From: a virus
Lineage: Duplodnaviria; Caudoviricetes
Strand: one strand, 5' to 3'
Length of the DNA stretch: 59,428 bases
Virus record (IMG/VR): IMGVR_UViG_3300025379_000012
Span: 1 to 59,428 of that record
Made by a program: the position numbers and the translations under genes. How positions within the stretch are numbered: position 1 is the first letter of the stretch; every line of letters starts with the position of its first letter. Shown in pieces: positions 3,166 to 50,277 of this stretch. A model generated the notes under the pieces. It saw nothing but the letters and a program-made list of their open reading frames with translations, was not told where the DNA came from and searched no databases.

Positions 3166-3333
3166 ATGGAAAAACTGCAAATTTCTACAAATCTAATAAA
3201 CGGACTTTTGTCTTACTTGGGAAGCCGTCCTTACCAAGAAGTATTTCAATTGATCGAAGGAATTCAAACTGAAGCCAGAAATCAGCCAGAAAACGCGATT
3301 CAATCGCCCCCCACAGAAACTCTAGCGAGCTAA
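3166..3333 (+). CDS. 55-aa hypothetical protein (below ORF-track cutoff), paralog of 54970-55125
   Basis: Strong RBS; MEKLQISTNLINGLLSYLGSRPYQEVFQLIEGIQTEARNQPENAIQSPPTETLAS. Confidence 0.75.
   Translation: MEKLQISTNLINGLLSYLGSRPYQEVFQLIEGIQTEARNQPENAIQSPPTETLAS
3294..3308. repeat. Dispersed palindrome copy 1 (CGCGATTCAATCGCC, 1 mismatch)
   Basis: Read directly from sequence. Confidence 0.85.
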
Positions 3334-3335
3334 TC

Positions 3336-3551
3336 ATGGACGGCGTGCACGAATTAGCCACAGAAACCGACAAGAAGCTTGCAGTCCATGAGGCTGTTTG
3401 TGCACAGCGGTACACCGCGATTCAATCGCGTTTTGATGATGGTTCCAAAAGAATGAAGCGAATTGAGACTATGCTTTATATTCTCATGGCCTGCGTTCTT
3501 TTGGGTCCTGGAGTTGCCGCCCAGCTCCTGCACAAGTTTATAGGTTTCTAA
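3336..3551 (+). CDS. Small coiled-coil + C-terminal TM protein (holin/XhlA-like)
   Basis: HEAVCAQRY coiled region then a hydrophobic C-terminus; at the head of the lysis region. Confidence 0.5.
   Translation: MDGVHELATETDKKLAVHEAVCAQRYTAIQSRFDDGSKRMKRIETMLYILMACVLLGPGVAAQLLHKFIGF
3416..3430. repeat. Dispersed palindrome copy 2 (CGCGATTCAATCGCG)
   Basis: Read directly from sequence. Confidence 0.95.
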
Positions 3552-3552
3552 C

Positions 3553-4257
3553 ATTGAGTTCTTGCTTTTATTCCAAGCCGCAAATGCCGCCTTCACGGGG
3601 GTTAAAGAGTTGTGCGCGATGTACAACGAAGGCAAGGCGCTTGTAAAAGATGTCAACAAGACTATCGGAGAAGTTAAACAGATTGCAAAAGAGGTTAAGG
3701 GAATATGGGGATGGATTGGAAAGCTATTTGCGCAACCAACTCCAGATCAGGGAAATCAGAAAGTCGAAGCGCCTAAGAAAAAAGAAAAAGTAAAGTTTGA
3801 CGAGAAGGCAATATACGCAGAGATTGGTGATCAACTGGTAATATTCTTTAAAAATTTCAGAGATTGTGCAGAGGCGATAAGGGTAGAAGAAGAGAAGATT
3901 GAGAAGATTTTTGACCCAGATGGGGACACGTATGAGAGGTCTATCCGCTTGGTAATAGCTAAAACACAGCTAGAGCAGATGGGGCAGGATTTGACGGATT
4001 ACATGATCTATCATGTGCCGCCGGAGTTAAAGGATTTATATTCCCGCGTCAATCAGATGATTGGAACGGTCAAAGTTAAACAAGAGTTAGCCAGGAAAGC
4101 GGAAGTCAGAAAGAGGGCGCAACGAGAAGCGGAGGCAAGGGAAGCGGCGGATAGGGCTTGGTTTTTGAGTGCTTGCACAGTAATGGTAATCTTTGTAGCA
4201 ATATATTTGGCAGGACTGATGTGGGCAATAAATCGAGTGACACATGGGGGTATGTAA
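3553..4257 (+). CDS. Coiled-coil membrane-anchored hypothetical protein (start ATT 3553 or TTG 3562)
   Basis: 231+ aa ORF with a C-terminal TM helix; no ATG at the 5' end. Confidence 0.65.
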   Translation: MEFLLLFQAANAAFTGVKELCAMYNEGKALVKDVNKTIGEVKQIAKEVKGIWGWIGKLFAQPTPDQGNQKVEAPKKKEKVKFDEKAIYAEIGDQLVIFFKNFRDCAEAIRVEEEKIEKIFDPDGDTYERSIRLVIAKTQLEQMGQDLTDYMIYHVPPELKDLYSRVNQMIGTVKVKQELARKAEVRKRAQREAEAREAADRAWFLSACTVMVIFVAIYLAGLMWAINRVTHGGM

Positions 4258-4421
4258 TTACCATCATCATCCTAGCGCTTCTTATTGTCCTGGTGTTGCC
4301 GATTCTTGGGTTTTTGTACATGGATATACATCAAGAAAGAATTTTGATTGCTAATGATTTAAAGAGAATAGAGAAGTTAAAGAAAGAACTTGAGCGTCAA
4401 AAAGAAAAGAGGGAAGAATGA
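4221..4421 (+). CDS. Small membrane protein
   Basis: GTG start after AGGA; TM segment VITIIILALLIVLVLPILGFLY then a charged coil. Confidence 0.55.
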   Translation: MGNKSSDTWGYVITIIILALLIVLVLPILGFLYMDIHQERILIANDLKRIEKLKKELERQKEKREE

Positions 4422-4651
4422 GAGTATGCGCTTTATTGATTTTATTGTTAGCGGGGTGCGGAGATCAGTATAGATACTTTTGTCAGAACCCTGATAACTT
4501 TAGTGCCGCACAGTGCCAAAAACCGCGTTGTGAGTTTGATCAGACATGCCCAGAATATTTAATTTCACCCGTCTTGGAGAAGAAAATTGAAGGAACTATT
4601 GTTAGCCCTCCTGTCCAACAAGCAGGACCAGCCTCGACTAACTGCCGATGA
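4418..4651 (+). CDS. Cys-rich lipoprotein
   Basis: Signal peptide with lipobox LAGC; further cysteines. Confidence 0.65.
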   Translation: MRVCALLILLLAGCGDQYRYFCQNPDNFSAAQCQKPRCEFDQTCPEYLISPVLEKKIEGTIVSPPVQQAGPASTNCR

Positions 4652-19297: not shown

Positions 19298-19332
19298 TTT
19301 AAACTCCTTAAAACGGCACATGCCGCACACGA

Positions 19333-19395
19333 ACTATAACATAAAATTAAAACAATGGGCGTTTGTTGCAATTTAACAAAAAGTTATCGTAGAAT
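19333..19395. promoter_or_regulatory. Divergent promoter region with two 17-bp operator-like sites
   Basis: Leftward extended -10 TGTTATAGT; rightward TTGCAA-18-TAGAAT (19366-19395); TWTAAY-N5-RTTAW sites at 19335-19351 and 19372-19388. Confidence 0.65.
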
Positions 19396-19400
19396 CAGGG

Positions 19401-19481: not shown

Positions 19482-19497
19482 ACAGCGAGGTAAAACA

Positions 19498-19698: not shown

Positions 19699-19709
19699 TA
19701 TAGTTATTT

Positions 19710-19811: not shown

Positions 19812-19820
19812 GGAGTAAAC

Positions 19821-20603
19821 ATGAGTAGAACAATAAAACTAGAAGAGTTGAGAGTTGACGGAGGCACGCAAAAGCGTCCACTTGATCAGGCAACAGTTGA
19901 TCACTATGCGGATTGCATGGAAAGCGGAGACGTGTTTCCTATCGTTAAAGCAACATTTGACGGTAAGTATTACTGGCTGTGGGACGGCTTTCACAGATAC
20001 TTTGCGTATAAGAAGCTGGGCTACGCAACGATTGAGCTAGATTACATTCCAGGCACCCGTGAGGATGCCGAGGATCTGTCTTACGGTGCTAACGGTAAGC
20101 ACGGACGCTCTCGTACCAGACAAGAGAAAGAAGAGATTGTTTTAGATGCGCTGTCTAAAGAGCGTCACAAAAACAAGAGCAACAAAGAGATTGCCAGGCT
20201 GTGTGAGGTGTCTGACAAGTTTGTGGCCGCTGTTCGTAGCCCTGAGAAAAAGGCTAAACAGGCTCAAAACGTCAAAAAGCATTACGAAAAAAAGGCAAAC
20301 GAGAGCGCGATTGAATCGCGGTCTGAGGAACCCAAGCCCTCAATTTTGGACGGAAACGAGCCCAGTGAGGAAGAGTTAAAGGCCAATGAGATGGCTATGC
20401 AGGCCGATTTGGATACTTTAAACAAGCTCCTTGAGGCTGACGATGCCCTGGCAACTGCACACGCTGAAATTAAGCGATTAAACTATCTGGTCGCCCAGAA
20501 AGAGGTCAGGATCGCCGCGATTATGCGCGAGAAGAGTGAATGTATTAAGTTATGTAAGAGCCTACAGTCCCAGTTAGATAAGATACACAGGAACAAAAAA
20601 TGA
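19821..20603 (+). CDS. ParB/Srx N-terminal domain + HTH + coiled-coil protein
   Basis: LWDGFHRYFA ParB signature, N..HG motif, SNKEIARLCEVSDKFV HTH. Confidence 0.8.
   Translation: MSRTIKLEELRVDGGTQKRPLDQATVDHYADCMESGDVFPIVKATFDGKYYWLWDGFHRYFAYKKLGYATIELDYIPGTREDAEDLSYGANGKHGRSRTRQEKEEIVLDALSKERHKNKSNKEIARLCEVSDKFVAAVRSPEKKAKQAQNVKKHYEKKANESAIESRSEEPKPSILDGNEPSEEELKANEMAMQADLDTLNKLLEADDALATAHAEIKRLNYLVAQKEVRIAAIMREKSECIKLCKSLQSQLDKIHRNKK
20306..20320. repeat. Dispersed palindrome copy 3 (CGCGATTGAATCGCG), inside the ParB-like gene
   Basis: Read directly from sequence. Confidence 0.95.
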
Positions 20604-22129
20604 GCGAAGTCCTAGCCCCAAGTGAGGGTAATGATGGAACAACCTTCCCCGAACCCAGACCTTTCCAACTGTCCGCCCATGAAGCCCTACGCCAAGGATT
20701 CAGGAACGGCCATAAACGACAACTCATCATGGCGCCTACAGGTGCAGGCAAGACCTATCTGGGTCTACGCATCTGTAACGAGGCCATACAAAAGGGTAAG
20801 CGTGCCGTGTTCTTATGCGACCGTACTACTCTTATTAACCAAACTTCTGAGGTGGCTGACTCTTACGGCTTGAAAGAGCACGGCGTTATACAGGCTAACC
20901 ACTGGCGCAGGTTGCCAGATAAGCTCCTTCAGGTGGCCTCAGCGCAGACTATTGCCAAGCGTGAGTACTGGCCTGCGCTAGACGTCTTAGTCGTTGATGA
21001 GGCACACACCCAGTACAAGGTATGGACTGAATACGCGGTTGAATGTGGGGCGGCGGTTATAGGCTTATCTGCTACACCGTTTAGTCCTGGACTGGGTAAG
21101 ATCTTTACTAACCTGATTAACGCAACCACCATGCACGATCTGACTGAGTCAGGTGTACTGGTACCCATGCGGATATTCTCTTGTACTAAACCTGATATGA
21201 CTGGCGCGGCAACCAGGGGCGGTGAGTGGACAGACAAGGCCGCCGAAGAGCGTGAGATGGGAATCATTGGCGATGTAGTAAGCGAGTGGCTAAACTTTGC
21301 TGAGAACCGCAAGACGATTGTCTTTGGGGCAACGATTAAGCACTGTGAAGAGTTGTGTAGTTCGTTTATCAGCCAAGGCGTTATGGCCGCTGTGTTTACG
21401 TCTAACACGACGGCTAAAGAGCGCGAGGATCTACTGGAGGAGTACAGAAAGCCTGACAGCTACCTCAAGGTGTTGATCTCTGTAGAAGCGCTGGCAAAGG
21501 GATTTGATGTGCCTGACGTTGGCTGTGTGTGTGATGCTAGACCTTTGCGTAAGTCATTGTCTACAGCCATTCAGATGTGGGGGCGCGGTTTAAGGAGTTC
21601 GCCTGATACGGGTAAGAAGGATTGTTATCTACTCGATTTCAGTGGAAATATTATCCGCTTTGCTGAAGACTTTACCGACATATTCTTTAACGGTCTATCC
21701 GAACTCGACAACGGTGAGAAGTTAGATAAGAAGATTCGTAAGGATGAGGACTACGAGCTGAAGGGCTGTCCTAAGTGTGGATACAAACCCTTTACAAAGA
21801 GATGTATGGGGTGTGGTTACGAGCGCCCTGGTCGTCCAATGGAAGATGCTTTGCCTGGCCACATGAGCGAGATCTACATTGGAGAGGGTAAGAATAAAAA
21901 GAAACTTGCAGACAATGCTGAGCACTTATGGGCGCAGATTGTGACGTATGCCCGTGCGCACAGTAAGCCTGAGAATCAACAGGGAAGGGCTTGGCATTTA
22001 TTTAAAAGAATTACGGGGCAGGCGCCGACCTGGATGTTCTCAACTCAGAAAAATGTTGAGATTACGCGTAACGTTCACAACAAAATAACACAGATGAATA
22101 TGGCATGGAAAAAGGGACTACAACGATGA
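20600..22129 (+). CDS. Superfamily 2 DExH helicase with C-terminal Zn ribbon
   Basis: APTGAGKT, DEAH, SAT, GFD.PD, QMWGRGLR, CPKC..CMGC. Confidence 0.92.
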   Translation: MSEVLAPSEGNDGTTFPEPRPFQLSAHEALRQGFRNGHKRQLIMAPTGAGKTYLGLRICNEAIQKGKRAVFLCDRTTLINQTSEVADSYGLKEHGVIQANHWRRLPDKLLQVASAQTIAKREYWPALDVLVVDEAHTQYKVWTEYAVECGAAVIGLSATPFSPGLGKIFTNLINATTMHDLTESGVLVPMRIFSCTKPDMTGAATRGGEWTDKAAEEREMGIIGDVVSEWLNFAENRKTIVFGATIKHCEELCSSFISQGVMAAVFTSNTTAKEREDLLEEYRKPDSYLKVLISVEALAKGFDVPDVGCVCDARPLRKSLSTAIQMWGRGLRSSPDTGKKDCYLLDFSGNIIRFAEDFTDIFFNGLSELDNGEKLDKKIRKDEDYELKGCPKCGYKPFTKRCMGCGYERPGRPMEDALPGHMSEIYIGEGKNKKKLADNAEHLWAQIVTYARAHSKPENQQGRAWHLFKRITGQAPTWMFSTQKNVEITRNVHNKITQMNMAWKKGLQR

Positions 22130-22290
22130 AACCAACAACACTTGAAGCATTAATTTATAACCGTGAAGCCAGACTCAAAGACAGAATAGAAAGAATAGGC
22201 GGTGTAAAAGATAAGATTAGACTAGAAGAGGTTAGGTATCTCAAGAAGCAATTACAAGAGATGTTAAAGAATTTGAGGGGACAAGAATGA
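22126..22290 (+). CDS. Small hypothetical protein
   Basis: ATGA overlaps at both ends. Confidence 0.6.
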   Translation: MKPTTLEALIYNREARLKDRIERIGGVKDKIRLEEVRYLKKQLQEMLKNLRGQE

Positions 22291-23156
22291 ACTTCGTTGA
22301 CTTTGCACGTATACACGGCGTAGACATCGATTATTCCCAACTCTACCCTTCTGACAAGATACGAAGGTGTGGAACGGTTGATAAGCCTAAGTCTACGAAC
22401 GGTGCGTTCTTTTACGACGGTGAGCGTGGCTGGGTATTTAACTGGGCAGGCGAGGCTCGCGTGTGCTGGTTTGAGTCTACTAAGCCGTGGTCAGATGCTG
22501 AAAAGCGTGAGTGGGCTGTAAAGCGTCAGCAGGCTAACTCTGACAAAGATAGATCCTATGAGGTTGCCGCACAAAAGGCCGACACGATTTTGCGCTCAGC
22601 CAAGATGGAATCACACCCTTATCTAGAGATCAAAGGTTTCAAAGAGATGAAGGCGTTGGTGCTTGAGGGTAGGCTCCTTATTCCTATGCGCAATGTGGTT
22701 ACGTCTAAGCTCCAGGGGCTTCAATCGATCTATTGGGACGAGGAGGCCAGAAAGTACGAAAAGAAAATGCTACACGGTATGCGGGCTAAAAATGCTGTGC
22801 TCTGTATGGGTCCTAGAGGGGCTTCAGAGCTTTGGTTTGTTGAGGGGTATGCCACAGGTCTATCCGTTCACAAAGCGCTTCGTAGCATGGGATTACACGC
22901 CACGGTGGTGGTTTGTTTCTCGGCATCTAACATGGTGCAGGTTGTTGACCAGTTGAACGGTTATCGGTTTATCTTTGCGGATAACGACTTGAGCAAGACT
23001 GGAGAAAAATCGGCAATAAGTACTGGTTTGCCTTGGACAATGGCGGATGAGTGTGGTATGGACGCCAACGACTTGCATAAAAAGAAAGGTTTGATGGCTG
23101 TGCAAAAGAAAATTATGGATATTCGTAGGGAGTTCTTGACAAAGCAGGCCGCTTAG
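22287..23156 (+). CDS. TOPRIM-domain primase
   Basis: VEGYATGLS and IFADND motifs; LIPMR..LQ.I. Confidence 0.85.
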   Translation: MNFVDFARIHGVDIDYSQLYPSDKIRRCGTVDKPKSTNGAFFYDGERGWVFNWAGEARVCWFESTKPWSDAEKREWAVKRQQANSDKDRSYEVAAQKADTILRSAKMESHPYLEIKGFKEMKALVLEGRLLIPMRNVVTSKLQGLQSIYWDEEARKYEKKMLHGMRAKNAVLCMGPRGASELWFVEGYATGLSVHKALRSMGLHATVVVCFSASNMVQVVDQLNGYRFIFADNDLSKTGEKSAISTGLPWTMADECGMDANDLHKKKGLMAVQKKIMDIRREFLTKQAA

Positions 23157-25942: not shown

Positions 25943-25957
25943 CGCGATTCAATCGCG
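25943..25957. repeat. Dispersed palindrome copy 4 (intergenic; extends to 17-bp GCGCGATTCAATCGCGC)
   Basis: Read directly from sequence. Confidence 0.95.
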
Positions 25958-29415: not shown

Positions 29416-29653
29416 AAAGACAGTAAAGAACACACCTAAGCCGCTGGCAAAAAAAGCCAAGAGCACCGCGATTGAATCGCACTCAAGGGAAGAGTTCAGA
29501 ATGCCCGTAGAGGTCAAAGAATGGATAGACCAGGCATCCAGCAGAATGAATCACATGCGCACAGAGATAGAGAGGCTCAAGGAAGAGAACAAAGCCCTGC
29601 GCCGCGCAAATAAAGCCATGGAGACACGCGTAATGGGTGTGAGCTTTGAATAA
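29402..29653 (+). CDS. Hypothetical coiled-coil protein
   Basis: ORF track; carries palindrome copy 5. Confidence 0.65.
   Translation: MVTAKKTVKNTPKPLAKKAKSTAIESHSREEFRMPVEVKEWIDQASSRMNHMRTEIERLKEENKALRRANKAMETRVMGVSFE
29467..29481. repeat. Dispersed palindrome copy 5 (CGCGATTGAATCGCA, 1 mismatch)
   Basis: Read directly from sequence. Confidence 0.85.
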
Positions 29654-31717: not shown

Positions 31718-31732
31718 CGCGATTCAATCGCG
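31718..31732. repeat. Dispersed palindrome copy 6 (intergenic, just after the terL stop)
   Basis: Read directly from sequence. Confidence 0.95.
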
Positions 31733-33260: not shown

Positions 33261-36200
33261 AAGAACTTGTAGGAAAAGGTAAACCTTTTTACTCGGCACT
33301 TGATCGGGCGTTAGAAACATTGCCAGAGAAGGCTAGTCCTGAGCAAATTGTCAATCATCTAATTAAGATGGGTGTTAAGCCACAAGAGATAATAGATCGT
33401 CGAATGGACAAAGAAGTTGGTGCGCCGTTGATACCGCGTGAGCGCACAGTTAAGCTTAAGAAGCCTGACGATAAGGGGCGAACAGAAATCGTTGAGCCTT
33501 ACTTTGAGACAACAAGAGTTAGTGGTGCCAAGGCTATACCGCGCAAAGTAGTTTCTGAACTGGCACAAAAGAACCCAATGGTTGCACCAGTTGAGAAGGT
33601 GCTTGGCAAGATGAGCGATTCCGAGTTCTTACAAAGAGCTAATGACATAGCCGAACAGAATTTTGGCGTGCCCTACGGCCAGTTAGATCATGAGAAGCAA
33701 AGTTCAATTGAAGGCTACATAGATGAGGATACATCTTATCATCGAGCATACACATTACCTGGTGGTGAGAACTACCGTGAGATGTTGATTAAGGCTCCGA
33801 AAGGCGGAGAGGAGTTTCCTGGCGTATCAAATCACTTTGGTGGTGAACCTGGCATCCTTGCAAGTATGCGATTAAAAGATCGTATTGGCCCTAATGGTGA
33901 GAAGCTTTTACACCTAGAGGAGTTGCAGTCTGACTGGCATCAGCAAGGGCGTGAGGTTGGATATAAACGACCTAATACGGGTGGTTTGCCTGAACTTAAA
34001 GAGGGTTGGAAATATGAAGATTTCAATGGAAAGATTGGAATTCGTGATCCTCGTGGAATACTTGCGGTAGCAGTTGAAAAACCTGAAGATGCTATTCGTT
34101 ACATAAGAGAAAACGGTTGGGCAAAACCAAACTCAGGCGTACCTGATGCCCCATTCAAAAAGAACTGGGAAGAGATGGCGCTCAAGCGATTGATTCATCA
34201 TGCCGCTGAGAAGGGTTACCACGGCATTGTTGTGACGCCAGGCCATGAGCAGGCAGACCGTTACAGCTTGGCCAAACACATCAATGAACTTCATTTATCT
34301 GGCACAAACTTAGTTGCATACGATCACAATGGCAATGAAGTCATTAAAAAAACTGGCGTCACTTCACAAGAGTTGCCATCGCTTGTTGGCAAAGAAACGG
34401 CAGAAAAATTGATGGCACAACAGCCGCAGGGTACTTTACGTTCATTGACTGGTCAAAACCTTGAAGTCGGTGGCGAAGGCATGAAGGGCTTTTACGACAA
34501 AAAGGTGCCTAACATCCTCAACAGCATCGGCAAGAAGTACGGTGTGAAAACGCAGTTGCATGCACATCCAATCAAAACTGAGCGTGAGCAAATGGTTCCT
34601 GACAATGCTGGCCTCGGAATGATTCGATCAGGCAAACCTGAGTATGCTCATGCACATCATTTCCCCATAACAGAAGAGATGCGCAAAGATGTATTGACTA
34701 ATGGCCTGCCCTTGTATGCTGAAGGTGGTGGTGTTCCTAGCCAGCATAGGGCACAATTCGAGAAGACGTTAGCAGACCTTAAGATAAGGACTGAGCTTAA
34801 TAAAAAGTACAACGACTTGTACGAAAAAAAGCGCGTAGAAAATCAACCGACTATTCAAGAGTTCTATGCTATGCATGGAATACAACACAAAGCCGAAGGA
34901 GGCGCCGTGCAACCATCCCTTAACCATATGCGCATGGCGCTAATGACCGGCGGTAAGATACCGTACACAGACATATCTAACATAGGCGCAGACGAAGCAC
35001 CTAGCATGGGCGTTAAGGCGTTTATTAATCCTAATGAGCGCAACAACATGGGACCTGGTGGCGTACAGTTACCAACTGGTGGGATCGATATGAACCCGCA
35101 ACAGCCTGGCCAACAGTTAATGCCACAGCAACCACAACAACAACCGCAAGGACAGCCCTCCCCGCTCAGCGCAGGAGCATCTAGCCCATTACAGCAACCA
35201 CCTAGCAACATATTGCAGATGACACCGCAAGGTCAGGCGATGAATGCTATGACACCTCCTAAGCAGATGGCTGAAGGCGGTGAAGTTGAACATATGGCCA
35301 ATGGCGGCTACATGACGCCAGAAGATCACTATCATCAATTGTTGATGCGTCATTACATGGGAGACAAGCTTAGCAAGGCGGATAACATAGCTTTGGGTTT
35401 GTATCACCGAGTAGGTGGTGGAAAGAAATTAAACAAGCCAATAGGTGAATATCAGTTTAATGTTGCGCCTAATCTTAATGTGAACATGGCTCCTGAAAAA
35501 ATAATTACTCCAGAAGATTTGTTTGGAGGCCATGGCATGCCATTTATTGGCGACTCTTCAATGGCTGGAAGAATTATTACTGGTGCGGAAGGGCATCAGT
35601 TTGATCAACCCGTGGAGGTTGAAGGCGGTCATGATTACATGCGTGCCAATGCCTTACATAAAGATAAGTCTAAGCGTGCCATATGGGCAAGCGCTCCAGG
35701 CAAGATTAAACATTTAACCCAGAAAGCTGAAAGGCTAAAGACCAAAGGACCCGTATATGGCATACATACTGGTATGTCTCCTACTGGCGTAGATTTTTCT
35801 CACATGCCTGCTGAAGTCTTGGGAGAGATGGTTAAGAAATCAAAGATAACCAAAAAATCTGAAAAAGAATTTAACAAAGAAATGAGCGCCAGGTTTAAAG
35901 ACTTTCCTGGATTGATGCACGAGGACTTGCATGAAATGCTCAGAGCACCAGGATCTGGTGAATTACGCAAGCATTTTGTAAAGCGTATGGCGACAGATAA
36001 ATATCAGAATGCAGGATTTCCAGAAATTGCAATGGCTAGATTGGCCGTACAGCATCCTAACTTAATGCAACATGATGAACCAGGCAAAGAGTATGTTGGA
36101 TCTAGTATTGGTAGATTTAATCCTAACTATAGTCTTGTAGACAATCCAGTTAATCCACATCATTCATATCCAGCCGTAATTGGCGGTGAATACGTTGGTG

Positions 36201-36490
36201 CTCTGCACTCAGAAAAAGATAAGCCATTGTTAACAACAAAAGACTTTTTTCATGAGTTTCATAAATTACGTAGAGAGTTTAATGCTCCAGAAGGTGGAGA
36301 CAGACGTGCGTTTGAATTAGCACAACCTGTACAAAAATTTGATCAAGAGTGGCTTGATAAAGTAATGCCGATTTATCTTGCAAGACGCAAACAACTAACT
36401 GGTAAGAAAAAAGGCGGAAGTGCAAGACTCTCCACAAATAAAGACATGATGCAATTAGAATTGATGCGCAAACCTAAAAAGGCTAAATGA
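33257..36490 (+). CDS. Large multidomain (polyvalent-type) protein
   Basis: FYSAL, LPGGENYRE.L, EELQSDWHQ, PDAPFK, GM..FYD domain; Q/P linker; further domains separated by xxGG motifs. Confidence 0.6.
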   Translation: MKELVGKGKPFYSALDRALETLPEKASPEQIVNHLIKMGVKPQEIIDRRMDKEVGAPLIPRERTVKLKKPDDKGRTEIVEPYFETTRVSGAKAIPRKVVSELAQKNPMVAPVEKVLGKMSDSEFLQRANDIAEQNFGVPYGQLDHEKQSSIEGYIDEDTSYHRAYTLPGGENYREMLIKAPKGGEEFPGVSNHFGGEPGILASMRLKDRIGPNGEKLLHLEELQSDWHQQGREVGYKRPNTGGLPELKEGWKYEDFNGKIGIRDPRGILAVAVEKPEDAIRYIRENGWAKPNSGVPDAPFKKNWEEMALKRLIHHAAEKGYHGIVVTPGHEQADRYSLAKHINELHLSGTNLVAYDHNGNEVIKKTGVTSQELPSLVGKETAEKLMAQQPQGTLRSLTGQNLEVGGEGMKGFYDKKVPNILNSIGKKYGVKTQLHAHPIKTEREQMVPDNAGLGMIRSGKPEYAHAHHFPITEEMRKDVLTNGLPLYAEGGGVPSQHRAQFEKTLADLKIRTELNKKYNDLYEKKRVENQPTIQEFYAMHGIQHKAEGGAVQPSLNHMRMALMTGGKIPYTDISNIGADEAPSMGVKAFINPNERNNMGPGGVQLPTGGIDMNPQQPGQQLMPQQPQQQPQGQPSPLSAGASSPLQQPPSNILQMTPQGQAMNAMTPPKQMAEGGEVEHMANGGYMTPEDHYHQLLMRHYMGDKLSKADNIALGLYHRVGGGKKLNKPIGEYQFNVAPNLNVNMAPEKIITPEDLFGGHGMPFIGDSSMAGRIITGAEGHQFDQPVEVEGGHDYMRANALHKDKSKRAIWASAPGKIKHLTQKAERLKTKGPVYGIHTGMSPTGVDFSHMPAEVLGEMVKKSKITKKSEKEFNKEMSARFKDFPGLMHEDLHEMLRAPGSGELRKHFVKRMATDKYQNAGFPEIAMARLAVQHPNLMQHDEPGKEYVGSSIGRFNPNYSLVDNPVNPHHSYPAVIGGEYVGALHSEKDKPLLTTKDFFHEFHKLRREFNAPEGGDRRAFELAQPVQKFDQEWLDKVMPIYLARRKQLTGKKKGGSARLSTNKDMMQLELMRKPKKAK

Positions 36491-38955
36491 TGGATCAAGA
36501 ACCAGAATACATTGAAAATGAAGACGGCAGTGCTAATGTCACTATGCCGGAAGAGGATCTTGACATTGAAGAGATGCCAGATGGGAGCGCGGTTGTAAAC
36601 ACGCCTAATGATGGCCCAGAAGAGAATCCTGATTTCTACGGCAACATGGCGGATGGTTACGCTGAGTATGAATTAAACACGTTAGCGTCAAGGTATATTG
36701 ATCTACTCAGAAAAGACAAAGACGCACGTGAGCAAAGAGATAAGCAGTATGAAGAGGGTATCCGCCGTACTGGTATGGGTAATGATGCGCCAGGTGGTGC
36801 AACGTTTATGGGTGCATCTAAAGTTGTTCACCCTGCTATGGCAGAAGGCTGTGTAGACTTTGCCGCCCGTGCAATTAAAGAGATGTTTCCGCCAGATGGT
36901 CCAGTCAGAACTAAGATCCTTGGCAAGATGGATGACATCAAAGCTGAGCGTGCTGAGCGTAAGCGCGATTATTTGAATTGGCAGATTACTGAGCAGATTG
37001 AAGAGTTTAGAGACGAGCAAGAGCAGTTGCTGACACAGTTACCGCTGGGTGGCTCACAGTACTTTAAGCTGTGGTTTGACGAAGAGAAAAAGCGCCCCTG
37101 CGTTGAATTCTTACCGATTGACCGAGTGATCCTGCCCTTTGCGGCATCAAACTTCTACACGGCTCAGCGTGCGGCTGAAGTACACGAGATAACGCACTGG
37201 GAGTTCAATCGCAGGATAGCAAGCGGTATGTACCGTGATGTGGACGTGACTAGGGCTACACAAGAGATTGAGCCTAACCGCGTACAAAAGGCTAATGACA
37301 AAATTGAAGGTAAGAAGTACGAAGACAATGAGGACGGACTCAGAAAGGTCTATCACATCTATACGTACTTAGAGATGGAAGAGGACAAGTACACCAAAGG
37401 CAAGATGGCACCGTACATCTTGATGGTGGACGAGTTAAACCACCAGGTGATTGGTCTGTACCGTAACTGGGAAGAGCAAGACGAAACCATGACCAAGTTG
37501 GACTGGATCGTTGAGTTCAAGTTTATACCTTGGAGGGGAGCATATGCAATCGGTTTACCTCATCTTATTGGTGGTCTTAGTGCCGCCCTTACTGGTTCGC
37601 TTCGCGCTTTACTTGATTCAGCGCATATCAATAACTCTGCAACGATGCTTAAGCTCAAAGGAGCAAAGATCAGCGGACAATCGCAACAAGTAGAAGTTAC
37701 GCAGATTGTTGAGATAGAGGGAGCCCCAGGCGTCCAAGACATCAGGCAGATTGCTATGCCTATGCCGTTCAACCCACCTAGCCAAGTTTTATTTGAACTA
37801 CTAGGATGGCTAGATACGGCCGCTAAGGGCGTTGTTAGCACAAGTGAAGAGAAGATAGCGGACATCAACCAAAACGCGCCTGTAGGTACCACGCAAGCTC
37901 TTATCGAGCAAGGCGCCGCAGTGTTTAGCGCGATTCATGCACGCTTACATGAGTCACAAGGCCGTGTACTCAAGATCCTTTGCAGGCTCAATCGATGGCA
38001 CTTGGATGAGATGCGCAAGTCTGAGATTGTTGCGGATCTAGAGATTAACAAAGAAGACTTCAGCCGTAACACGGACGTTGTACCTGTTTCTGATCCACAC
38101 ATCTTCTCTGAAACACAAAGGATGGCTCAAAATCAGGCTGTACTGGCACTTGCTGAGAAGCACCCAGAAGAGTTCAACATGAACAAAGTGTTGTCCAGGT
38201 TCCTCAAGCAGATGAAGGTGCCAGACATCAATGAGTTAATGAAAGATACTCCAGCGCCAGAACAACGGACAAGTGCGGACGAAAATGCGGCGATGTTGTT
38301 GGGTCAGCCTGCGTATGCTTATATGCAACAAGACCACATTGCGCATATTCAAGATCACTTGCAGTTTGGCATGAACCCATTCCTGGGTCAGTCACCCTTT
38401 GCTGATCCTAACTACCTGAACAACTTAATTGAACACATAAAACAACACATGACGCTTTGGTATCTTAATAGATCCAACGGCTATGTTGCGCAAGCCAACA
38501 AAGGTAAGCCAATCGACAACTACGACGATCCAAGACTTACATCGACCTACGACAAGCTGTACACAAGCGTTGGCGGTCACTTGAAGTTGGACACGCAAGA
38601 AACGTTTGAGCAGTTTGCACCGCAATTCCAGCAGTTGATCCAGCAGGCTCAGCAACGTGCACAAGCGGCGCAAGGACAGTTACCGCCAGATGCACAAGTT
38701 GTTAAAGACACAAGCATGGCTGAGACACAGCGTAAGGCGGCGGCAGACAAGGCTAAGCAAATGTTTGACCAGGCTAAGTTGGCGGCTGATGCTCAGAAAA
38801 ATCAAGTTGATAATCAAACAAAGATTGCAATTGAGAATGCTAAGCTGACTCATGAAGCGATAACAAACATGGTGCAATCATCACCACCCGCCGCACCCGC
38901 GGTACAACCGGCGCAACCGCCACAACCTGAAGGAGCCCCAAATGGCAACGTCTGA
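36487..38955 (+). CDS. Portal protein (P22-like, long C-terminal helix)
   Basis: 822 aa after the terminase region; VHP.MAE, F.ARA..E.FP..GPV, LPL.GS...K, APVGTT.AL.EQ, DV.PVSDP. Confidence 0.85.
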   Translation: MMDQEPEYIENEDGSANVTMPEEDLDIEEMPDGSAVVNTPNDGPEENPDFYGNMADGYAEYELNTLASRYIDLLRKDKDAREQRDKQYEEGIRRTGMGNDAPGGATFMGASKVVHPAMAEGCVDFAARAIKEMFPPDGPVRTKILGKMDDIKAERAERKRDYLNWQITEQIEEFRDEQEQLLTQLPLGGSQYFKLWFDEEKKRPCVEFLPIDRVILPFAASNFYTAQRAAEVHEITHWEFNRRIASGMYRDVDVTRATQEIEPNRVQKANDKIEGKKYEDNEDGLRKVYHIYTYLEMEEDKYTKGKMAPYILMVDELNHQVIGLYRNWEEQDETMTKLDWIVEFKFIPWRGAYAIGLPHLIGGLSAALTGSLRALLDSAHINNSATMLKLKGAKISGQSQQVEVTQIVEIEGAPGVQDIRQIAMPMPFNPPSQVLFELLGWLDTAAKGVVSTSEEKIADINQNAPVGTTQALIEQGAAVFSAIHARLHESQGRVLKILCRLNRWHLDEMRKSEIVADLEINKEDFSRNTDVVPVSDPHIFSETQRMAQNQAVLALAEKHPEEFNMNKVLSRFLKQMKVPDINELMKDTPAPEQRTSADENAAMLLGQPAYAYMQQDHIAHIQDHLQFGMNPFLGQSPFADPNYLNNLIEHIKQHMTLWYLNRSNGYVAQANKGKPIDNYDDPRLTSTYDKLYTSVGGHLKLDTQETFEQFAPQFQQLIQQAQQRAQAAQGQLPPDAQVVKDTSMAETQRKAAADKAKQMFDQAKLAADAQKNQVDNQTKIAIENAKLTHEAITNMVQSSPPAAPAVQPAQPPQPEGAPNGNV

Positions 38956-39097
38956 TGCAGAACAAAAGAGTGACATGGTACGTTACCGTACCCGTATGGC
39001 CCAAGGCGTAAAGCTTGACGGCACAAGCCTACAACCCAAAGGCGGTAATCAGCCTAAGAAGCCACAAGGCGGATTAGCACACGCTAAAAAGAAATGA
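38942..39097 (+). CDS. 51-aa basic hypothetical protein
   Basis: RBS AAGGAG; MATSDAEQKSDMVRYRTRMAQG... Confidence 0.6.
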   Translation: MATSDAEQKSDMVRYRTRMAQGVKLDGTSLQPKGGNQPKKPQGGLAHAKKK

Positions 39098-39273
39098 TTT
39101 CAGCTCTGATCCATGTGATCAAACTGCACCAAGCTGAAATAGGAGCGGCTCTAGCGGACGGCAATGCCAGTACGTGGGAGTCGTATCAACGCATGGTTGG
39201 CGAGAATCAGGGGCTCAAGTATGTCCTTGATCAAATAAACCGCATGTTAGACGAAGAACGAAACCAAGAATAA
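39094..39273 (+). CDS. 59-aa hypothetical protein
   Basis: ATGA overlap; WESYQRMVGENQGL. Confidence 0.65.
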   Translation: MISALIHVIKLHQAEIGAALADGNASTWESYQRMVGENQGLKYVLDQINRMLDEERNQE

Positions 39274-39351
39274 GTCCCCCTAAAGGACTGAGGCCGCGCT
39301 GAAAAGCGCTTTAACGATGCACCTGAAATATGGTGATTTTTAGGAGTTAGT

Positions 39352-39816
39352 ATGAGTGAAGCAAACGAACCGATTCAAATTATCGGTGGTAGTGAAGGTG
39401 TGTCCGATCCAACTGAGTTGGCATGGGCATTCCCAGACGTAAACCCTGGACAACGTCCATACGGTGGTCGAGTGATTGTGCAACTGCGTCGAATTAAAAA
39501 GAAACGTGGCCGTATCATCATTGTTGATGAAACCAAAGAAAACGAAAAGTGGAACAACATGATCGGTAAGATCGTGGCGATTGGTCCATTGGCGTTTAAG
39601 AACAAAGACACTATGCAACCCTGGGTCGAAGGCTCTTGGGCTGAGATTGGTGACTATGTTCGCGTGCCTAGGTGGGGCGGAGATCGTTGGGAGCGATTAG
39701 TTCCTGGCGAGGCTAACGAAGAGTACCCAGACCCAGTGCTATTCATGACAATCAACGACCATGAACTGATTGCGGCGGTCACAGATGACCCGCTATCGTT
39801 CAAAGTTTACGTATAA
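39352..39816 (+). CDS. GroES/Cpn10-like co-chaperonin
   Basis: RP.GGRVIV, IIIVDE, GKIVAIGPLA, IGDYV, INDHELIA. Confidence 0.8.
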   Translation: MSEANEPIQIIGGSEGVSDPTELAWAFPDVNPGQRPYGGRVIVQLRRIKKKRGRIIIVDETKENEKWNNMIGKIVAIGPLAFKNKDTMQPWVEGSWAEIGDYVRVPRWGGDRWERLVPGEANEEYPDPVLFMTINDHELIAAVTDDPLSFKVYV

Positions 39817-39828
39817 AAGGACACAATC

Positions 39829-40821
39829 ATGGCAACTGATACAAAAGATTCAGCAGAACTGGACATTTTGGAAGAGAAAGACGGTTCTGCGGTGGTAGAT
39901 ATACCCGCAGATATGAACATTGGCGACGATGTTGAGGTCGAAAACGCGATTGAATCGCGCTCCGAAGAGCCTCCAAAGGCTGAAAACGAAGATGACGACC
40001 ACCCAGACGACGATGAAGCGCTCAGAGCGGCCAAAAGAAACCGTCGTAGGGCTAAAAAAGACCTAATCCGCAAGACAAACGAAGAAAAAGACCTGCGTTT
40101 ACAGCAATTACAGCGTGAAAACGAGGAATTCAAGCGTCGTTTATCCAATGTTGAGGATAGAACACGTCAAAACGACATTTTGCGTATAGAAAAGAACATA
40201 GAAGATAGCCAAGTACGCTTGGAATACGCAAAAATGAAGTTAGCAGAGGCTGTAAGCTCTAATGACGGCCAGGCTATGGTAGAGGCGCAAGACCTTTTTA
40301 CCACTGCTAAGCAAGAAATAGCTGAGTTACAACAGTACAAGAATCGTATGGCTGAACAGCCACGACAACAACAAAGAAACGATGATGTTGCAATGCCTGA
40401 TCCTTCAGTTCAGCGCAACGCGGCAGAGTGGATGCGTCGTAATTCTTGGTATAACCCGAACTCAAGTGACCGCGATGTCATGGTGGCAAAGAAGCACGAT
40501 GAAGCGATGGTTGCAGAGGGATGGGATCCGTCCGATAAAGATTATTGGGAAGAATTAGATAGTCGCTTGCAAAAAGCACTGCCACATCGTTACAATGCAT
40601 CAACGGACAGTGATTCTGTTGTTCGTAAACCGAGGAACGTTGTGGGAAGTTCTGGACGAGAAGCATCGGCGGCCTATGGGGGCAGAAATAACTCCCAGTT
40701 CGTGCTTTCACCTGAGAGGGTAAGGGCAATGAAGGAAGCAGGCGCTTGGGACAATCCAGTTCGCAAAAAAGCAATGGTCGAAAGCTTCATGAAGTACGAC
40801 CGTCAAAACCGCAATAACTAA
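39829..40821 (+). CDS. Putative capsid scaffolding protein
   Basis: Acidic N-terminus, long coiled coil, W..RNSWY, YWEELD.RL; upstream of MCP. Confidence 0.65.
   Translation: MATDTKDSAELDILEEKDGSAVVDIPADMNIGDDVEVENAIESRSEEPPKAENEDDDHPDDDEALRAAKRNRRRAKKDLIRKTNEEKDLRLQQLQRENEEFKRRLSNVEDRTRQNDILRIEKNIEDSQVRLEYAKMKLAEAVSSNDGQAMVEAQDLFTTAKQEIAELQQYKNRMAEQPRQQQRNDDVAMPDPSVQRNAAEWMRRNSWYNPNSSDRDVMVAKKHDEAMVAEGWDPSDKDYWEELDSRLQKALPHRYNASTDSDSVVRKPRNVVGSSGREASAAYGGRNNSQFVLSPERVRAMKEAGAWDNPVRKKAMVESFMKYDRQNRNN
39945..39959. repeat. Dispersed palindrome copy 7
   Basis: CGCGATTGAATCGCG read directly. Confidence 0.95.
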
Positions 40822-40838: not shown

Positions 40839-41384
40839 ATGGAATCACGTCTTAAAAAATCTTTGAAGGCTGGCGCACGCGAAGACCGTTCTAACGGGGA
40901 AGCAAGTCACCAGGCTCCAGAAGACAAGTTCATTTCTGCGCAGGAACGTCGAAAGATGTGGAGCGAGGAGTGGACGCAATCAGCACTGCCAAAACTGCCC
41001 AATATGGATGGGTGGCACCTTTGCTGGCTTTCGACAACCAACACTTACGATTCAATCGATAAGCGGATTCGCCTAGGATACGTTCCAGTTAAGTCTGAAG
41101 AGTTACCAGGTTATGAAGATTATCGGGTTAAGTCAGGTGAGCATGTTGGGTATATTTCGTGCAACGAGATGTTATTGTTCAAGTTGCCCATGGATATTTA
41201 CCAAGAGGTTATGACGCATATGCACCATGACAAACCTCGTGAAGAAGCGGACAAAATCCGTGTTCAATTGGAAAGTCTCCAGGGTCAAAGAGATAGTAAT
41301 GGTCGTTCGCTTGTAAATGTCGAGGGCGAGGGTATTGGTAGTATTGATCAACAACCAAGCAAATTGCCCGTATTTTCGGGTTAA
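40839..41384 (+). CDS. Conserved head-module hypothetical protein
   Basis: 181 aa between scaffold and capsid genes. Confidence 0.65.
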   Translation: MESRLKKSLKAGAREDRSNGEASHQAPEDKFISAQERRKMWSEEWTQSALPKLPNMDGWHLCWLSTTNTYDSIDKRIRLGYVPVKSEELPGYEDYRVKSGEHVGYISCNEMLLFKLPMDIYQEVMTHMHHDKPREEADKIRVQLESLQGQRDSNGRSLVNVEGEGIGSIDQQPSKLPVFSG

Positions 41385-48268: not shown

Positions 48269-48269
48269 T

Positions 48270-48788
48270 ATGCCCTTAACGAAGTCTAAATCAAAGAAAG
48301 CCTTTTCGCATAACGTGGAGGCAGAGATGCACGCAGGCAAGCCACAGCGTCAAGCAGTGGCGATTGCATATGCAGTCCAGCGTAAGGCTAAGAAGGCTAG
48401 TGGGGGTTCGATGAGCCCTCACTCCTATGACAGCGATTGGGACTACCGTCGCGCCATGGGTGAAGATATGGACTCAGACAATCCAGAGACTGAAGAGAAA
48501 GAGTCTTACAAGATCCCACGTAAAGAAGAGAAGAAGATTAACAAGCTTGAAGGCCGTATTGGCCTTGAGAAAAAGGCTTTAGCTTCTGGACGTAAGGAAG
48601 AGGCTAGTAAGCAAAGTGCTCGTATTGGGCGTAATCTAGAGTCAGAAAGAGCTAGAGCAGGCGCTAAGTACGAAGAGTCAGTTGGTAATAAACAGAAAGC
48701 ACAATCCCACCGCAAGGAATGGGAAACTACATTTAAGAAGCCCGCACCCTTCAAAAAGGGCGGAAAAGTAACTCATCCTTGCTGGTGA
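48270..48788 (+). CDS. Basic hypothetical protein with xxGG motifs
   Basis: MPL.KSKSKKAF..NV.AEM.AGKP..QAVAIAY. Confidence 0.65.
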   Translation: MPLTKSKSKKAFSHNVEAEMHAGKPQRQAVAIAYAVQRKAKKASGGSMSPHSYDSDWDYRRAMGEDMDSDNPETEEKESYKIPRKEEKKINKLEGRIGLEKKALASGRKEEASKQSARIGRNLESERARAGAKYEESVGNKQKAQSHRKEWETTFKKPAPFKKGGKVTHPCW

Positions 48789-48792
48789 AATC

Positions 48793-49188
48793 ATGGCCAA
48801 ACCTGGACTTTATGCCAACATCCATAAAAAGCAAGAGCGCATAGCCCATGGCTCTGGCGAACACATGCGCAAGCCTGGTAGTAAGGGCGCGCCAACTGCT
48901 GAAGCTTTCAAAGAGTCAGCTAAAACAGCAAAGATGAAGGACGGCGGTACAAGCTTGGCGGTGGGTAGGGGTGAGAAGCTACCCGTCTCTAAAGGCGCTG
49001 GACTGACAGCTAAAGGAAGAGCCAAGTACAACAGGGAAAACGGTAGCCACTTAAAGGCACCACAACCCCAAGGCGGGGCTCGTAAAGATTCATTTTGTGC
49101 CCGTATGAGTGGAGTTGTAGAACACTCAAAGGGTGACGCTCCAAGAGCAAAGGCTTCATTAAAACGCTGGAATTGCCCAGGTTGGTAA
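48793..49188 (+). CDS. Basic hypothetical protein
   Basis: GLYANIH.K..RI..GSGE.MRKPG; RKDSFCARM. Confidence 0.65.
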   Translation: MAKPGLYANIHKKQERIAHGSGEHMRKPGSKGAPTAEAFKESAKTAKMKDGGTSLAVGRGEKLPVSKGAGLTAKGRAKYNRENGSHLKAPQPQGGARKDSFCARMSGVVEHSKGDAPRAKASLKRWNCPGW

Positions 49189-49197
49189 AGGTAAAAA

Positions 49198-50277
49198 ATG
49201 TCAGGTACAACTAGCGGAACCGTCGGTCAAACAGTAGTCACCGTTCAAAATTTGATTGACAACGGTGCGCGGCGCGCTGGCAAATTAGCTGAAGAGTTAA
49301 CCGTTGAGCAGGTAAATAGTGCAAGACAATCATTGTTCTTTGTACTGAGTAACCTAATCAACCAGGGTATCCAATACTTTGCCGTCAAAAAGCAGGTATA
49401 CGGCCTTCAGCCAGCAAAATTTGAGTACACCCTACCCGATGGTGGTGTAGACGTTTTAAACGCCTTATACCGCCAAATGACTCAGCCTATTGGATCTTAT
49501 AGCTCCAGTTCTGGCGGCAACGTATCTTACTTGGCGGATGACAACGTCAGCACATACGCTCAGCAGACATCGTCTAACGGTTACTTTCAAGTAACTTACG
49601 GCACAAACAACTCACAGTACATTGGTTCAATCGGCATCATGCCTTATGTGGCCAGCTTTGGTACTGCAACATGGAGTTACAGTTTTCAGTCATCCATAGA
49701 CGGAACTAACTGGCAGACTCTGTATACGGCCACAAACGTTACCGTTACCGATGGCCAGTGGATATGGCAGGACATAGATCCAGGGGCGATTGTTCAGTAC
49801 TACCGCATCCAAGCGTCTGGCGGTACAACTTTGGCACTACGTGAGTGGTACTTAGGTGTTAACTCAACTGAGATCACCATGGCGCGATTGAATCGCGATG
49901 ACTACACAAATTTACCCAACAAGAACTTTACGGCCAATCAACCGTTCCAGTTCTGGTTAAACCGCACGATACCCAATGCGACGATAACTTTGTGGCCAAC
50001 TCCACAGAGCGCGTTTTATCAAATGACGGTCTGGTACTCCAGCCAGATACAAGACGTTGGATCTTTGACTAATTCTTTGGCTATTCCAGATCGCTGGTTG
50101 ATGGCCATACAAAACATGCTAGCTCACCAGATGAGCCAGGAGTTGCCTGGTATTGATTTAGCTAGGGTTCAGTATTTAGAAGCTCAAGCTGAAAAATACT
50201 TCATCATGGCTGAACAAGAAGAGCGCGACAAATCGCCGATCTACTTCGCTCCGAACATAGGAGTTTACACACGATGA
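49198..50277 (+). CDS. Head-to-tail connector-like protein with inserted discoidin/F5-8-like domain
   Basis: SAR.SL...L..L.N.G, ITLWPTP, IPDRW; insert with S.DGTNW..L and YYRI. Confidence 0.6.
   Translation: MSGTTSGTVGQTVVTVQNLIDNGARRAGKLAEELTVEQVNSARQSLFFVLSNLINQGIQYFAVKKQVYGLQPAKFEYTLPDGGVDVLNALYRQMTQPIGSYSSSSGGNVSYLADDNVSTYAQQTSSNGYFQVTYGTNNSQYIGSIGIMPYVASFGTATWSYSFQSSIDGTNWQTLYTATNVTVTDGQWIWQDIDPGAIVQYYRIQASGGTTLALREWYLGVNSTEITMARLNRDDYTNLPNKNFTANQPFQFWLNRTIPNATITLWPTPQSAFYQMTVWYSSQIQDVGSLTNSLAIPDRWLMAIQNMLAHQMSQELPGIDLARVQYLEAQAEKYFIMAEQEERDKSPIYFAPNIGVYTR
49883..49897. repeat. Dispersed palindrome copy 8
   Basis: CGCGATTGAATCGCG read directly; different reading frame (R-L-N-R). Confidence 0.95.

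Follow-up and report, generated by a model that had tools for sequence, protein, structure and literature searches.

A genome-wide palindrome set and its probable cognate ParB-fold protein in helicase-linked loci of uncultured freshwater phages

Introduction

Why does an uncultured freshwater phage carry the same 15-bp palindrome at eight places of its genome, one of them inside the gene of a DNA-binding protein? The question is raised by IMG/VR record IMGVR_UViG_3300025379_000012 (Duplodnaviria; Caudoviricetes), whose 59,428 bp, rated a complete virus, were analysed at full length and are called the window here; its phage is called W. An original prediction, made from the letters of W alone, had paired the palindrome with an orphan ParB-like protein carrying a helix-turn-helix (HTH), encoded at 19821-20603 (P0001). 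We compared W with related phages, whose records and loci are given G and L numbers, and the comparison indicates that the palindrome is very probably the cognate site of this protein.

Results

The palindrome is strongly enriched in W

As examined by motif scanning, CGCGATTSAATCGCG occurs in six exact copies in W (3416, 20306, 25943, 31718, 39945 and 49883), and none of 100 dinucleotide-preserving shuffles of the genome held any (mean expectation 0.00). When up to two mismatches were allowed, only two further copies were found, at 3294 (CGCGATTCAATCGCC) and 29467 (CGCGATTGAATCGCA), each with one mismatch at the last base, and the total of eight compares with 0.06 expected. The palindrome is by far the most over-represented word of the W genome. 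Against these expectations the six exact and two one-mismatch copies that had been predicted are real, and their positions, their reading frames (A-I-(E/Q)-S five times, R-L-N-R once) and the two intergenic copies had also been given correctly. Six of the eight sites are intragenic, the gaps between sites are 2-17 kb, and the central base is C in four copies and G in four. The sites are listed below, together with a weak ninth copy and with their state in the related records G005 and G011.

3294..3308: one mismatch; small open reading frame (ORF) 3166-3333, read as A-I-(E/Q)-S; kept in G011 with the central base switched, flanks just 72% identical
3416..3430: exact; small ORF 3336-3551, A-I-(E/Q)-S; decayed in G011, where 11/15 positions are kept in the alignment
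20306..20320: exact; inside the ParB-fold gene 19821-20603 (+485 nt), A-I-(E/Q)-S, encoding S162-R167 at the start of a disordered linker
25943..25957: exact; intergenic, between a stop at 25923 and a start at 26049, at the end of the early operon
29467..29481: one mismatch; ORF 29402-29653, upstream of the terminase genes, A-I-(E/Q)-S; core kept in G005
31718..31732: exact; intergenic, beginning 2 nt past the stop of terL (30286-31716; Terminase_6N/6C)
39945..39959: exact; near the start of ORF 39829-40821, A-I-(E/Q)-S; G005 keeps 14/15 positions, flanks 73% identical
49883..49897: exact; adaptor-like gene 49198-50277, R-L-N-R, a peptide conserved in the family
41048..41058: weak ninth copy, limited to the 11-bp core CGATTCAATCG, also in G005; its status as a site is uncertain

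Near-identical contigs of W are present in many freshwater metagenome runs, and contigs from 4/4 further freshwater runs cover 20100-40050. A variant of about 98.5% identity, X15, differs from W at 20231 and 20339, and none of the best-supported differences listed (339 more stand outside this list) falls inside 20306-20320. Since independent contigs of other runs hold the sequence, the motif is not an assembly artefact, a possibility for which the original prediction had allowed. Megablast of W 19000-27000 against deposited phages gave no match.

A motif scan of viral contigs returned close relatives of 95-99% nucleotide identity and one more distant record, G005 (about 80%), a 27-kb fragment with five copies, each at the place of a W copy. 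Between W and G005 the 13-bp core was intact at 5/5 comparable sites, and the flanks were 73-83% identical at four of them. Such islands of conservation between genomes of 80% identity indicate that selection acts at the DNA level at the sites, as had been argued for W.

Deeper conservation was considered and rejected. The distant genomes G001-G004 (about 57% amino-acid identity) hold one or two copies each at up to two mismatches, with an exact copy in the adaptor gene. This site encodes the conserved R-L-N-R, and among 80 relatives picked independently of the motif only 1 has the identical DNA there, so the copy in G001-G004 reflects ascertainment. No other enriched palindrome and no tblastn match to the ParB-fold protein were found in these four genomes. 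G010 was likewise dropped as a genome lacking the gene, since its contig ends before the region and is not a valid negative.

Related phages carry palindromes of their own

Relatives selected by a structural protein encode ParB-fold homologues at 45-61% identity and are without the W motif. The top repeated word of their genomes is an odd palindrome of their own, CCAGTTSAACTGG with eight copies in G008, TGGAATCSGATTCCA with five in G009 and TGGAATTSAATTCCA with four in G006. The relatives' palindromes differ from that of W, measure 13-19 bp and have any base at the centre. In G008, one copy lies in the homologue of ORF 29402-29653, where W also has a site.

A wider search with an alignment of the ParB-fold protein gave 48 loci. 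The family has two N-terminal forms, called type A and type B here, and 40 type-A genes were available, W counted. In 35/40 type-A genes the linker-coding DNA after the HTH was found to hold an odd palindrome whose arms measure 5 or more, 485-615 nt into the gene and often as 2-3 tandem copies 24-51 bp apart; three further type-A genes have even or spaced palindromes, and the gene of G017 holds two tandem degenerate units. Genome-wide counts were made in 14 genomes that are complete or nearly so and have a type-A gene, with 20 first-order Markov simulations per genome. The results showed that the core of the in-gene palindrome occurs 4-9 times in 11 of the 14, against simulated maxima of 2-4, and that it is the top odd palindrome of these 11 genomes (joint top in G018).

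The type-B N-terminal form is unrelated to type A (it has DGWHRY and another HTH) and is joined to the same C-terminal module. Type-B phages also have sites in their own gene and after terL, namely CCGCACCSGGTGCGG in G007 and three copies of GTTCC-N11-GGAAC in G013.

The start of the recognition helix covaries with the half-site

The recognition-helix motif of the type-A proteins reads VS-x1-x2-F (W residues 130-134), in which x1 and x2 open the recognition helix. The residue pair x1x2 was compared with the half-site of the palindrome, as follows.

QP: TACTAATC
QS: TACTAGTC or TACTAGTT
HP: GTGGAATC or GTGGAATT, that is GTGGAAT(C/T)
HT: GTGGAGTC
AP or VP: GTGTAATC
KP: GAGTAATT
RS: GTAGTC
GS: GTGCAGTT
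ET: CCAGTT
DK (W and L223): (C/T)GCGATT

The base third from the centre (-3) is A where x2 is P and G where x2 is S or T, in 32/32 rows where both traits are present. When the HTH columns are left out of the tree, each of the two traits changes at least 10 times and never without the other. Independent pairs agreed in 5/5 cases on well-supported branches (sign test p 0.0625, the best reachable with five) and in 10/10 when all branches were used. The HTH codons and the in-gene site are just about 70-150 bp apart, and inheritance as a single cassette is possible; linkage alone cannot explain the covariation, because copies 5-30 kb away also match the in-gene copy. The covariation check that the original prediction had proposed thus came out in favour of its pairing of the motif with the ParB-fold/HTH protein of the phage, to which the copy inside the gene also points, both by comparison of sequences. 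D132 and K133, at the start of the recognition helix, are the probable specificity residues of W. The free central base fits a dimer that would read two half-sites.

At the protein level, linker peptides of 117 database homologues showed a repeated 4-mer in 42, and x2 = P went with 'AAT/ATT-type' peptides in 21/21; little weight is given to this test, since its classes were chosen post hoc and x2 = T is ambiguous in peptides (20 vs 20). The frequent re-tuning of specificity suggests diversifying selection, perhaps for avoiding cross-talk among co-infecting relatives.

It has been considered whether the sites recruit or titrate a host factor or form a GANTC/CcrM-type methylation signal, or whether they arose by chance or assembly. 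GANTC is indeed present in every W copy, and the original prediction had pointed to it as a feature; most of the relatives' palindromes, such as TACTAATCNGATTAGTA, are without it, and for this reason GANTC is incidental to the particular sequence of W. A host protein, also put forward in the original prediction, is an unlikely partner because the palindrome covaries with a residue pair encoded by the phage, and the enrichment far above chance and the independent assemblies speak against the remaining two. This whole group of explanations is scarcely credible.

The ParB-fold gene is coupled to a helicase gene

The ParB-fold gene is the first of a rightward early operon in W. This gene and its annotated neighbours are listed here (Pfam scans throughout used a cut-off of E <= 0.01).

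19821..20603, + strand: ParB-fold/HTH protein gene (P0001, 260 amino acids); PHROG 1033 'ParB-like partition protein', 3.4e-19
20600..22129, + strand: superfamily 2 (SF2) DNA helicase with ResIII and Helicase_C domains and a Cys-rich segment at the C-terminus; start overlapping the ParB-fold stop
22287..23156, + strand: DNA primase (Toprim); Toprim_3 weak, E 1.3e-4, below the curated cut-off; PHROG 2249 and 510 'DNA primase', 1e-30
23941-24399: Holliday-junction resolvase, downstream of the primase
just upstream of the ParB-fold gene, opposite strand: PD-(D/E)XK exonuclease

The rest of the W genome consists of structural genes. In the loci selected by the ParB-fold protein, the helicase gene lay downstream in 47/47, with stop and start mostly overlapping. 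The reverse selection, by the helicase, gave 80 loci, 77 of them with upstream DNA, and the ParB-fold gene was directly upstream in at least 74 of the 77. The automatic test had found the ParB-fold gene in 71, a C-terminal match alone in 2 and nothing in 4; by eye, L350, L384 and L385 have a ParB-fold gene overlapping the helicase start, and L353, L354 and L386 are the remaining exceptions of the automatic test. The helicase is conserved at 72-97% vs 34-65% for the DNA-binding protein. In a complex prediction, the helicase and the C-terminal part (amino acids 165-260) scored 0.22 against a mark of 0.32. In L244, L248, L256 and L260 the helicase match begins about 1.2 kb past the ParB-fold gene and covers just about 376-379 residues, which suggests that the helicase gene is split or carries an insertion (homing element, intron or intein?).

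No known replication initiator family was matched among the 21 small early and middle ORFs scanned between 16.9 and 29.4 kb; 25100-25654 gave a GNAT acetyltransferase match alone. Because the helicase linkage is invariable and the genes overlap, a role in replication is favoured for the ParB-fold protein, and because of the invariable helicase-primase coupling and a layout like that of lambda O and SPP1 gp38, replication is preferred to partition. By this analogy we rate it an even call that the protein binds an origin and recruits the replisome.

Two unrelated N-terminal types thus stand on one common C-terminal module, and a possible case of exchange was found in G011 (loci L271/L272), which is W-like at 77-86% nucleotide identity. 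The similarity breaks at W 19833-20336, ending just past the site; the N-terminal module of G011 is type B, while its C-terminal part (94.5%) and its helicase (96.7%) are W-like. The in-gene palindrome of G011, GGAACTGGGTTCC, has no other copy in its 29 kb. The pattern looks like decay of sites after a recent module swap.

The protein has a ParB/sulfiredoxin fold with an altered box II

Pfam gave no family for P0001, ParBc included, and its only PHROG matches are ParB-like. ParBc is a precomputed Pfam annotation of some homologues. At least 541 homologues are present in databases, all of them metagenomic, on contigs of at most about 58 kb, and labelled 'hypothetical' or 'ParB-like Spo0J'. A sequence search of solved structures with P0001 returned weak sulfiredoxin (Srx) matches, and the family profile matched sulfiredoxin (4.7e-8) and MxParB (5.6e-7) in the PDB.

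An AlphaFold model built from 44 homologues (pLDDT confidence score 87.6) has an alpha/beta N-domain at residues 1-90, with DGFHRY at 55-60, directly followed by helices 100-112, 121-128 and 132-139, of which the last two form the HTH, and by a long helix at 141-164. A linker of low confidence, predicted to be disordered, spans about 165-182, and a conserved C-terminal helical hairpin follows at 183-259. Over the N-domain and HTH, Foldseek matched Noc (7ng0, 8.6e-7), MxParB (7bnk), Caulobacter ParB, BsParB (6sdk) and KorB (8qa9), the last with template-modelling (TM) scores of 0.42/0.51 and a root-mean-square deviation of 3.6 over 148 columns. The KorB and ParB structural alignments, of 140-148 columns, cover both the N-domain and the HTH; the N-domain alone matches sulfiredoxin (6ky4).

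In the HMMER profile alignment, box II of MxParB, 'GERRWRA', aligns with 'DGFHRYhA' of the family. The catalytic Glu is replaced by Phe (Trp in type B), the first Arg by His, and the second Arg is kept. According to this alignment the fold is that of ParB/Srx but the Glu and the first Arg of the motif for hydrolysis of cytidine triphosphate (CTP) are absent, which suggests that CTP hydrolysis is altered or lost. The original prediction had proposed a ParA-independent ParB/parS-like system. Its first half holds, since ParA-type ATPases (PF13614, PF01656) and the tyrosine integrase (PF00589) gave no match in the six-frame translation of W, with ATPase-search controls matched in 14/14 genomes. 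Membership of the canonical ParB/parS group does not hold, given DGFHRY for GERRxR, the lack of a Pfam match and the conserved C-terminal helical hairpin.

A DGxHR-type N-domain is also that of the 'ParB-like nucleases', and the protein could be a site-specific nuclease or nickase that cuts the palindromes for packaging or for priming of replication or recombination. The DGFHRY motif, the best sequence matches, which favour sulfiredoxin and the ParB-nuclease type over CTPase ParBs, and the recombination genes nearby would suit such an enzyme. The fold match nevertheless runs through the HTH, as in DNA-binding ParBs, and we consider a nuclease very improbable.

The ParB/Noc-like fold and the spread of the sites over the genome at gaps of 2-17 kb would also suit a protein that spreads from its sites to compact, protect or position the DNA, for example as a ParA-independent centromere, a Noc-like factor or a 'self' mark against a nuclease, and the analogies of the original prediction pointed the same way. 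This explanation is improbable. No ParA, integrase or other sign of a plasmid-prophage life style was found in W, the protein lacks the GERR motif, direct terminal repeats of the kind typical for linear genomes of virulent type occur in several relatives, and the strict helicase linkage would be unexplained.

The sites recur at the same places, two of them beside promoter-like elements

We mapped 70 sites from 13 genomes onto W coordinates, and the sites recur at the same places despite their differing sequences. Sixteen lie in the phage's own ParB-fold gene, in all 12 of the 12 genomes that cover the region. The intergenic region at about 25.9 kb has a site in 9/13 genomes, and 11 sites in 9/13 genomes directly follow the terL stop, where type-B G007 and G013 have theirs too. 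Two further places are shared by relatives and not by W, just past the major head gene (about 42,975, 3 genomes) and at about 51,635 (4 genomes).

In W, a promoter-like TAGACT-17-CATAAT (31738-31766) begins 6 nt beyond the post-terL site. Altogether promoter-like elements lie next to two of the eight W sites, and relatives conserve one of the two elements. Within 19.4-32.4 kb, promoter-like matches were not enriched (16 vs 17.6 expected from shuffles). The AT content 30-60 nt downstream of the 25.9-kb site is 0.67-0.70, and this stretch is the same promoter-like intergenic region.

Other elements were noticed at these two places. After the terL site, 'GGCATAAT' is conserved in G005, G006, G009, G007 and G013. 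An inverted repeat, TAGGGTTTGTCCCTA (hairpin-like TAGGG...CCCTA, 25964-25978), lies 6 nt past the 25943 site, and several relatives have TAGGG...CCTA-like elements and a conserved 'CTTTAACTTC(A/G)TGTTA' after the equivalent site; the repeat may act as a terminator, as an operator that another factor binds, or within an origin. Between the ParB-fold gene and about 42 kb the GC skew takes strongly positive values, as high as +0.20; outside this stretch it is flat, even though nearly all genes are on the + strand. The few kb after the gene or the early operon are G-rich in most relatives too.

These positions raise the possibility of a global regulator like KorB, BisD or VirB, which would load at the dispersed sites, possibly as a sliding clamp dependent on a nucleoside triphosphate, and repress or activate middle and late promoters, such as those following the early operon and terL. 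In its favour are a fold near those of KorB and ParB, the precedent of ParA-less ParB-like regulators of mobile elements (KorB, BisD, VirB), the promoter-like elements beside the two most conserved intergenic sites, post-terL and 25.9 kb, and the many dispersed sites, also within genes, which suit a clamp sliding to distant promoters. On the other hand, six of eight W sites are intragenic and promoter-like matches are not enriched, the spacing from site to -35 varies (6, 10 and 22 nt), the protein lacks both the catalytic Glu and the first Arg of GERR, and the overlap with the helicase gene and the in-linker site would be unexplained. We consider a regulator, the chief rival to the replication reading, somewhat unlikely as the main function. 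It would leave the pairing of site and protein intact, and only the output would differ.

Other features of the W genome

Two other repeated words were rejected as related signals, since both belong to coding repeats that have no relation to the palindrome. The first, GCGGTACAAC, occurs seven times (6964, 7759, 8880, 9864, 38899, 49820 and 56395), always on the + strand and within structural genes, where it probably reflects a G-G-T-T peptide that recurs, and not a signal in the DNA. The second, GAATGGGTAGGGTT, occurs three times (28493, 28881 and 29099) and is common to three neighbouring small genes (window 28367-29212), probably paralogues with a conserved E-W-V-G-L peptide. A tRNA scan of W found none. 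L012 201-393 matches both W 59236-59428 (91%) and W 1303-1495 (97%); the right end of W thus repeats sequence near its left end, either as paralogous small genes or as a trace of terminal redundancy. The gene after terL (31773-33260) encodes an ART-PolyVal domain (ADP-ribosyltransferase of polyvalent proteins, 3.9e-25), and the next (33257-36490) a protein of 1077 amino acids; both products are possibly ejected or internal virion proteins.

Discussion

The role at the origin that we rate evenly would work as follows. A dimer would read two 7-bp half-sites around one unread base and would owe its specificity to residues 132-133, which open the recognition helix. A variable N-terminal DNA-binding module, with the site in its linker, would be joined to a conserved C-terminal helical module, and the protein would recruit the helicase. 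Replication would start at the in-gene site and probably also at the 25.9-kb intergenic site, which has an AT-rich flank; the remaining copies, dispersed and in part syntenic, would have secondary uses in landing, pausing or titration. Put in its most specific form, a ParB/Srx fold may have been recruited as a sequence-specific, helicase-loading initiator in a large group of uncultured freshwater phages, with landing sites spread across the genome and a two-residue code repeatedly re-tuned together with all sites; this we propose tentatively, with more doubt than confidence.

Several observations weigh against this account. No AT-rich unwinding element was found beside the in-gene site (mean AT 0.43-0.57 in 30-nt windows), and the GC skew gave no clear origin signal, with no consistent origin-type minimum across relatives. 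The helicase is of the SF2 and not the DnaB type of replicative helicases. A conserved promoter-like T(A/G)GACT-17-CATAAT follows the post-terL site at a distance of 6-22 nt, which fits a regulator, and the 25.9-kb site is also just upstream of a promoter-like element. The 4-9 dispersed sites resemble the site sets of KorB, Noc or ParB and, to our knowledge, exceed the need of any phage initiator. We know of no replication initiator with a ParB/Srx fold, and literature searches found none. Three of the 14 type-A genomes (G017, G024 and G025) showed no enrichment, with 2-3 copies each. Type-B G011 retains one site of the W type, corresponding to W 3294, and its counterpart of 3416 is lost; G005, with its five W-type sites, comes from the same sample and could be neither joined to nor separated from G011, the two having complementary coverage of W and a sole mutual match of 138 bp at 78% identity. 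The roles in replication and regulation are compatible and do not exclude each other. DnaA, whose boxes are scattered, likewise combines initiation with regulation.

Among known systems, KorB of RK2 is a ParB-family CTP clamp and global repressor that reaches promoters from distal sites (bioRxiv 10.1101/2024.02.16.579611). It shares with P0001 the fold of N-domain and HTH (8qa9), a palindrome dispersed over a mobile genome with some copies beside promoters, and, according to the same source, a long flexible linker before the C-terminal domain. P0001 differs by the missing GERR box; no ParA/IncC was found in W, and a KorA-like partner is not known for it, no search having been aimed at one. W also differs as a virulent-type phage genome with helicase/primase coupling, a site in the protein's own gene and hypervariable specificity. 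RK2 carries about 12 OB sites. ParABS and Noc-NBS likewise combine a ParB/Srx fold and HTH with a palindromic site, which P0001 would share by sequence comparison, and a site in or beside parB is a known habit, as with B. subtilis parS inside spo0J. The family departs from ParABS in having DGFHRY in place of GERRxR, no ParA found and a different C-terminal domain.

The lambda origin lies in the middle of gene O and holds 19-bp imperfect inverted repeats of varying number (PMC7466680). P0001 resembles O in the site inside its own gene and in the helicase-delivery genes that follow. It differs in having no sequence relation to O (no Pfam match), another fold, no AT-rich element at the in-gene site, 4-9 further copies in its family, and an SF2 helicase in place of the host DnaB delivered by P. 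In lambda O, too, a phage-specific N-terminal part is combined with an interchangeable C-terminal part. SPP1 gp38 binds oriL, inside gene 38, and oriR, in the late region, where fork stalling has been proposed (PMC6316719); binding of the second site is proposed to stall the fork and switch the replication mode (PMC6316719, PMC3485210). The site in its own gene, a second set in the late structural region, and an exonuclease and Holliday-junction resolvase nearby (the SPP1 set also includes an annealing protein) are features alike in W. SPP1 differs by direct repeats with an AT-rich unwinding element and a DnaB-type helicase with loader, while W has more sites, each a single palindrome, and a ParB fold. 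No sequence homology of P0001 to O or gp38 was found by Pfam, and its PHROG matches are ParB-like alone.

ParA-less or CTP-independent ParB-like proteins are described in regulation or enzyme activation, such as BisD (ICEclc), VirB (Shigella plasmid) and ParT (SCP2) (PMC12409273, PMC10770331, PMC12260392), and phage ParBs without a DNA-binding domain activate 5mYOX thymidine dioxygenases (bioRxiv 10.1101/2025.08.14.668559). P0001 differs from the latter in its HTH, and a TET/JBP-type gene was not met among the window proteins scanned, no dedicated search having been made. For none of these proteins do the texts consulted describe a covarying genome-wide site set or helicase coupling. Phage orphan ParB-fold proteins are numerous and uncharacterised according to a 2025 survey (bioRxiv 10.1101/2025.10.10.680097), which may list the present family; otherwise the literature covered by our searches gave no account of the family, of a helicase-coupled phage ParB-fold protein or of covarying genome-wide sites.

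The family places a site-specific DNA-binding system of ParB fold in a new setting, and its specificity code is unusually easy to read; it adds to the ParA-less ParB-fold proteins that are increasingly seen to act as switches, in regulation and elsewhere. In related phages protein and sites have changed jointly, with the positions of the sites kept while their sequence was replaced, and these matched pairs probably start or organise replication. More than 10 natural specificity variants are available, with cognate sites readable straight from each genome and a simple rule from residue to base (x2 P with A, S or T with G), which together offer a testable model for joint changes of specificity in a DNA-binding protein and in all of its sites across the genome. 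The matched pairs are potential orthogonal parts for synthetic biology. If the protein is a helicase-loading initiator, this role would be new for the ParB/Srx fold, the variants would amount to replication-specificity (incompatibility) types among co-infecting relatives, and a ready library of orthogonal protein-DNA pairs would be at hand. The system may thus reveal a new phage route to origin recognition or to the timing of gene expression.

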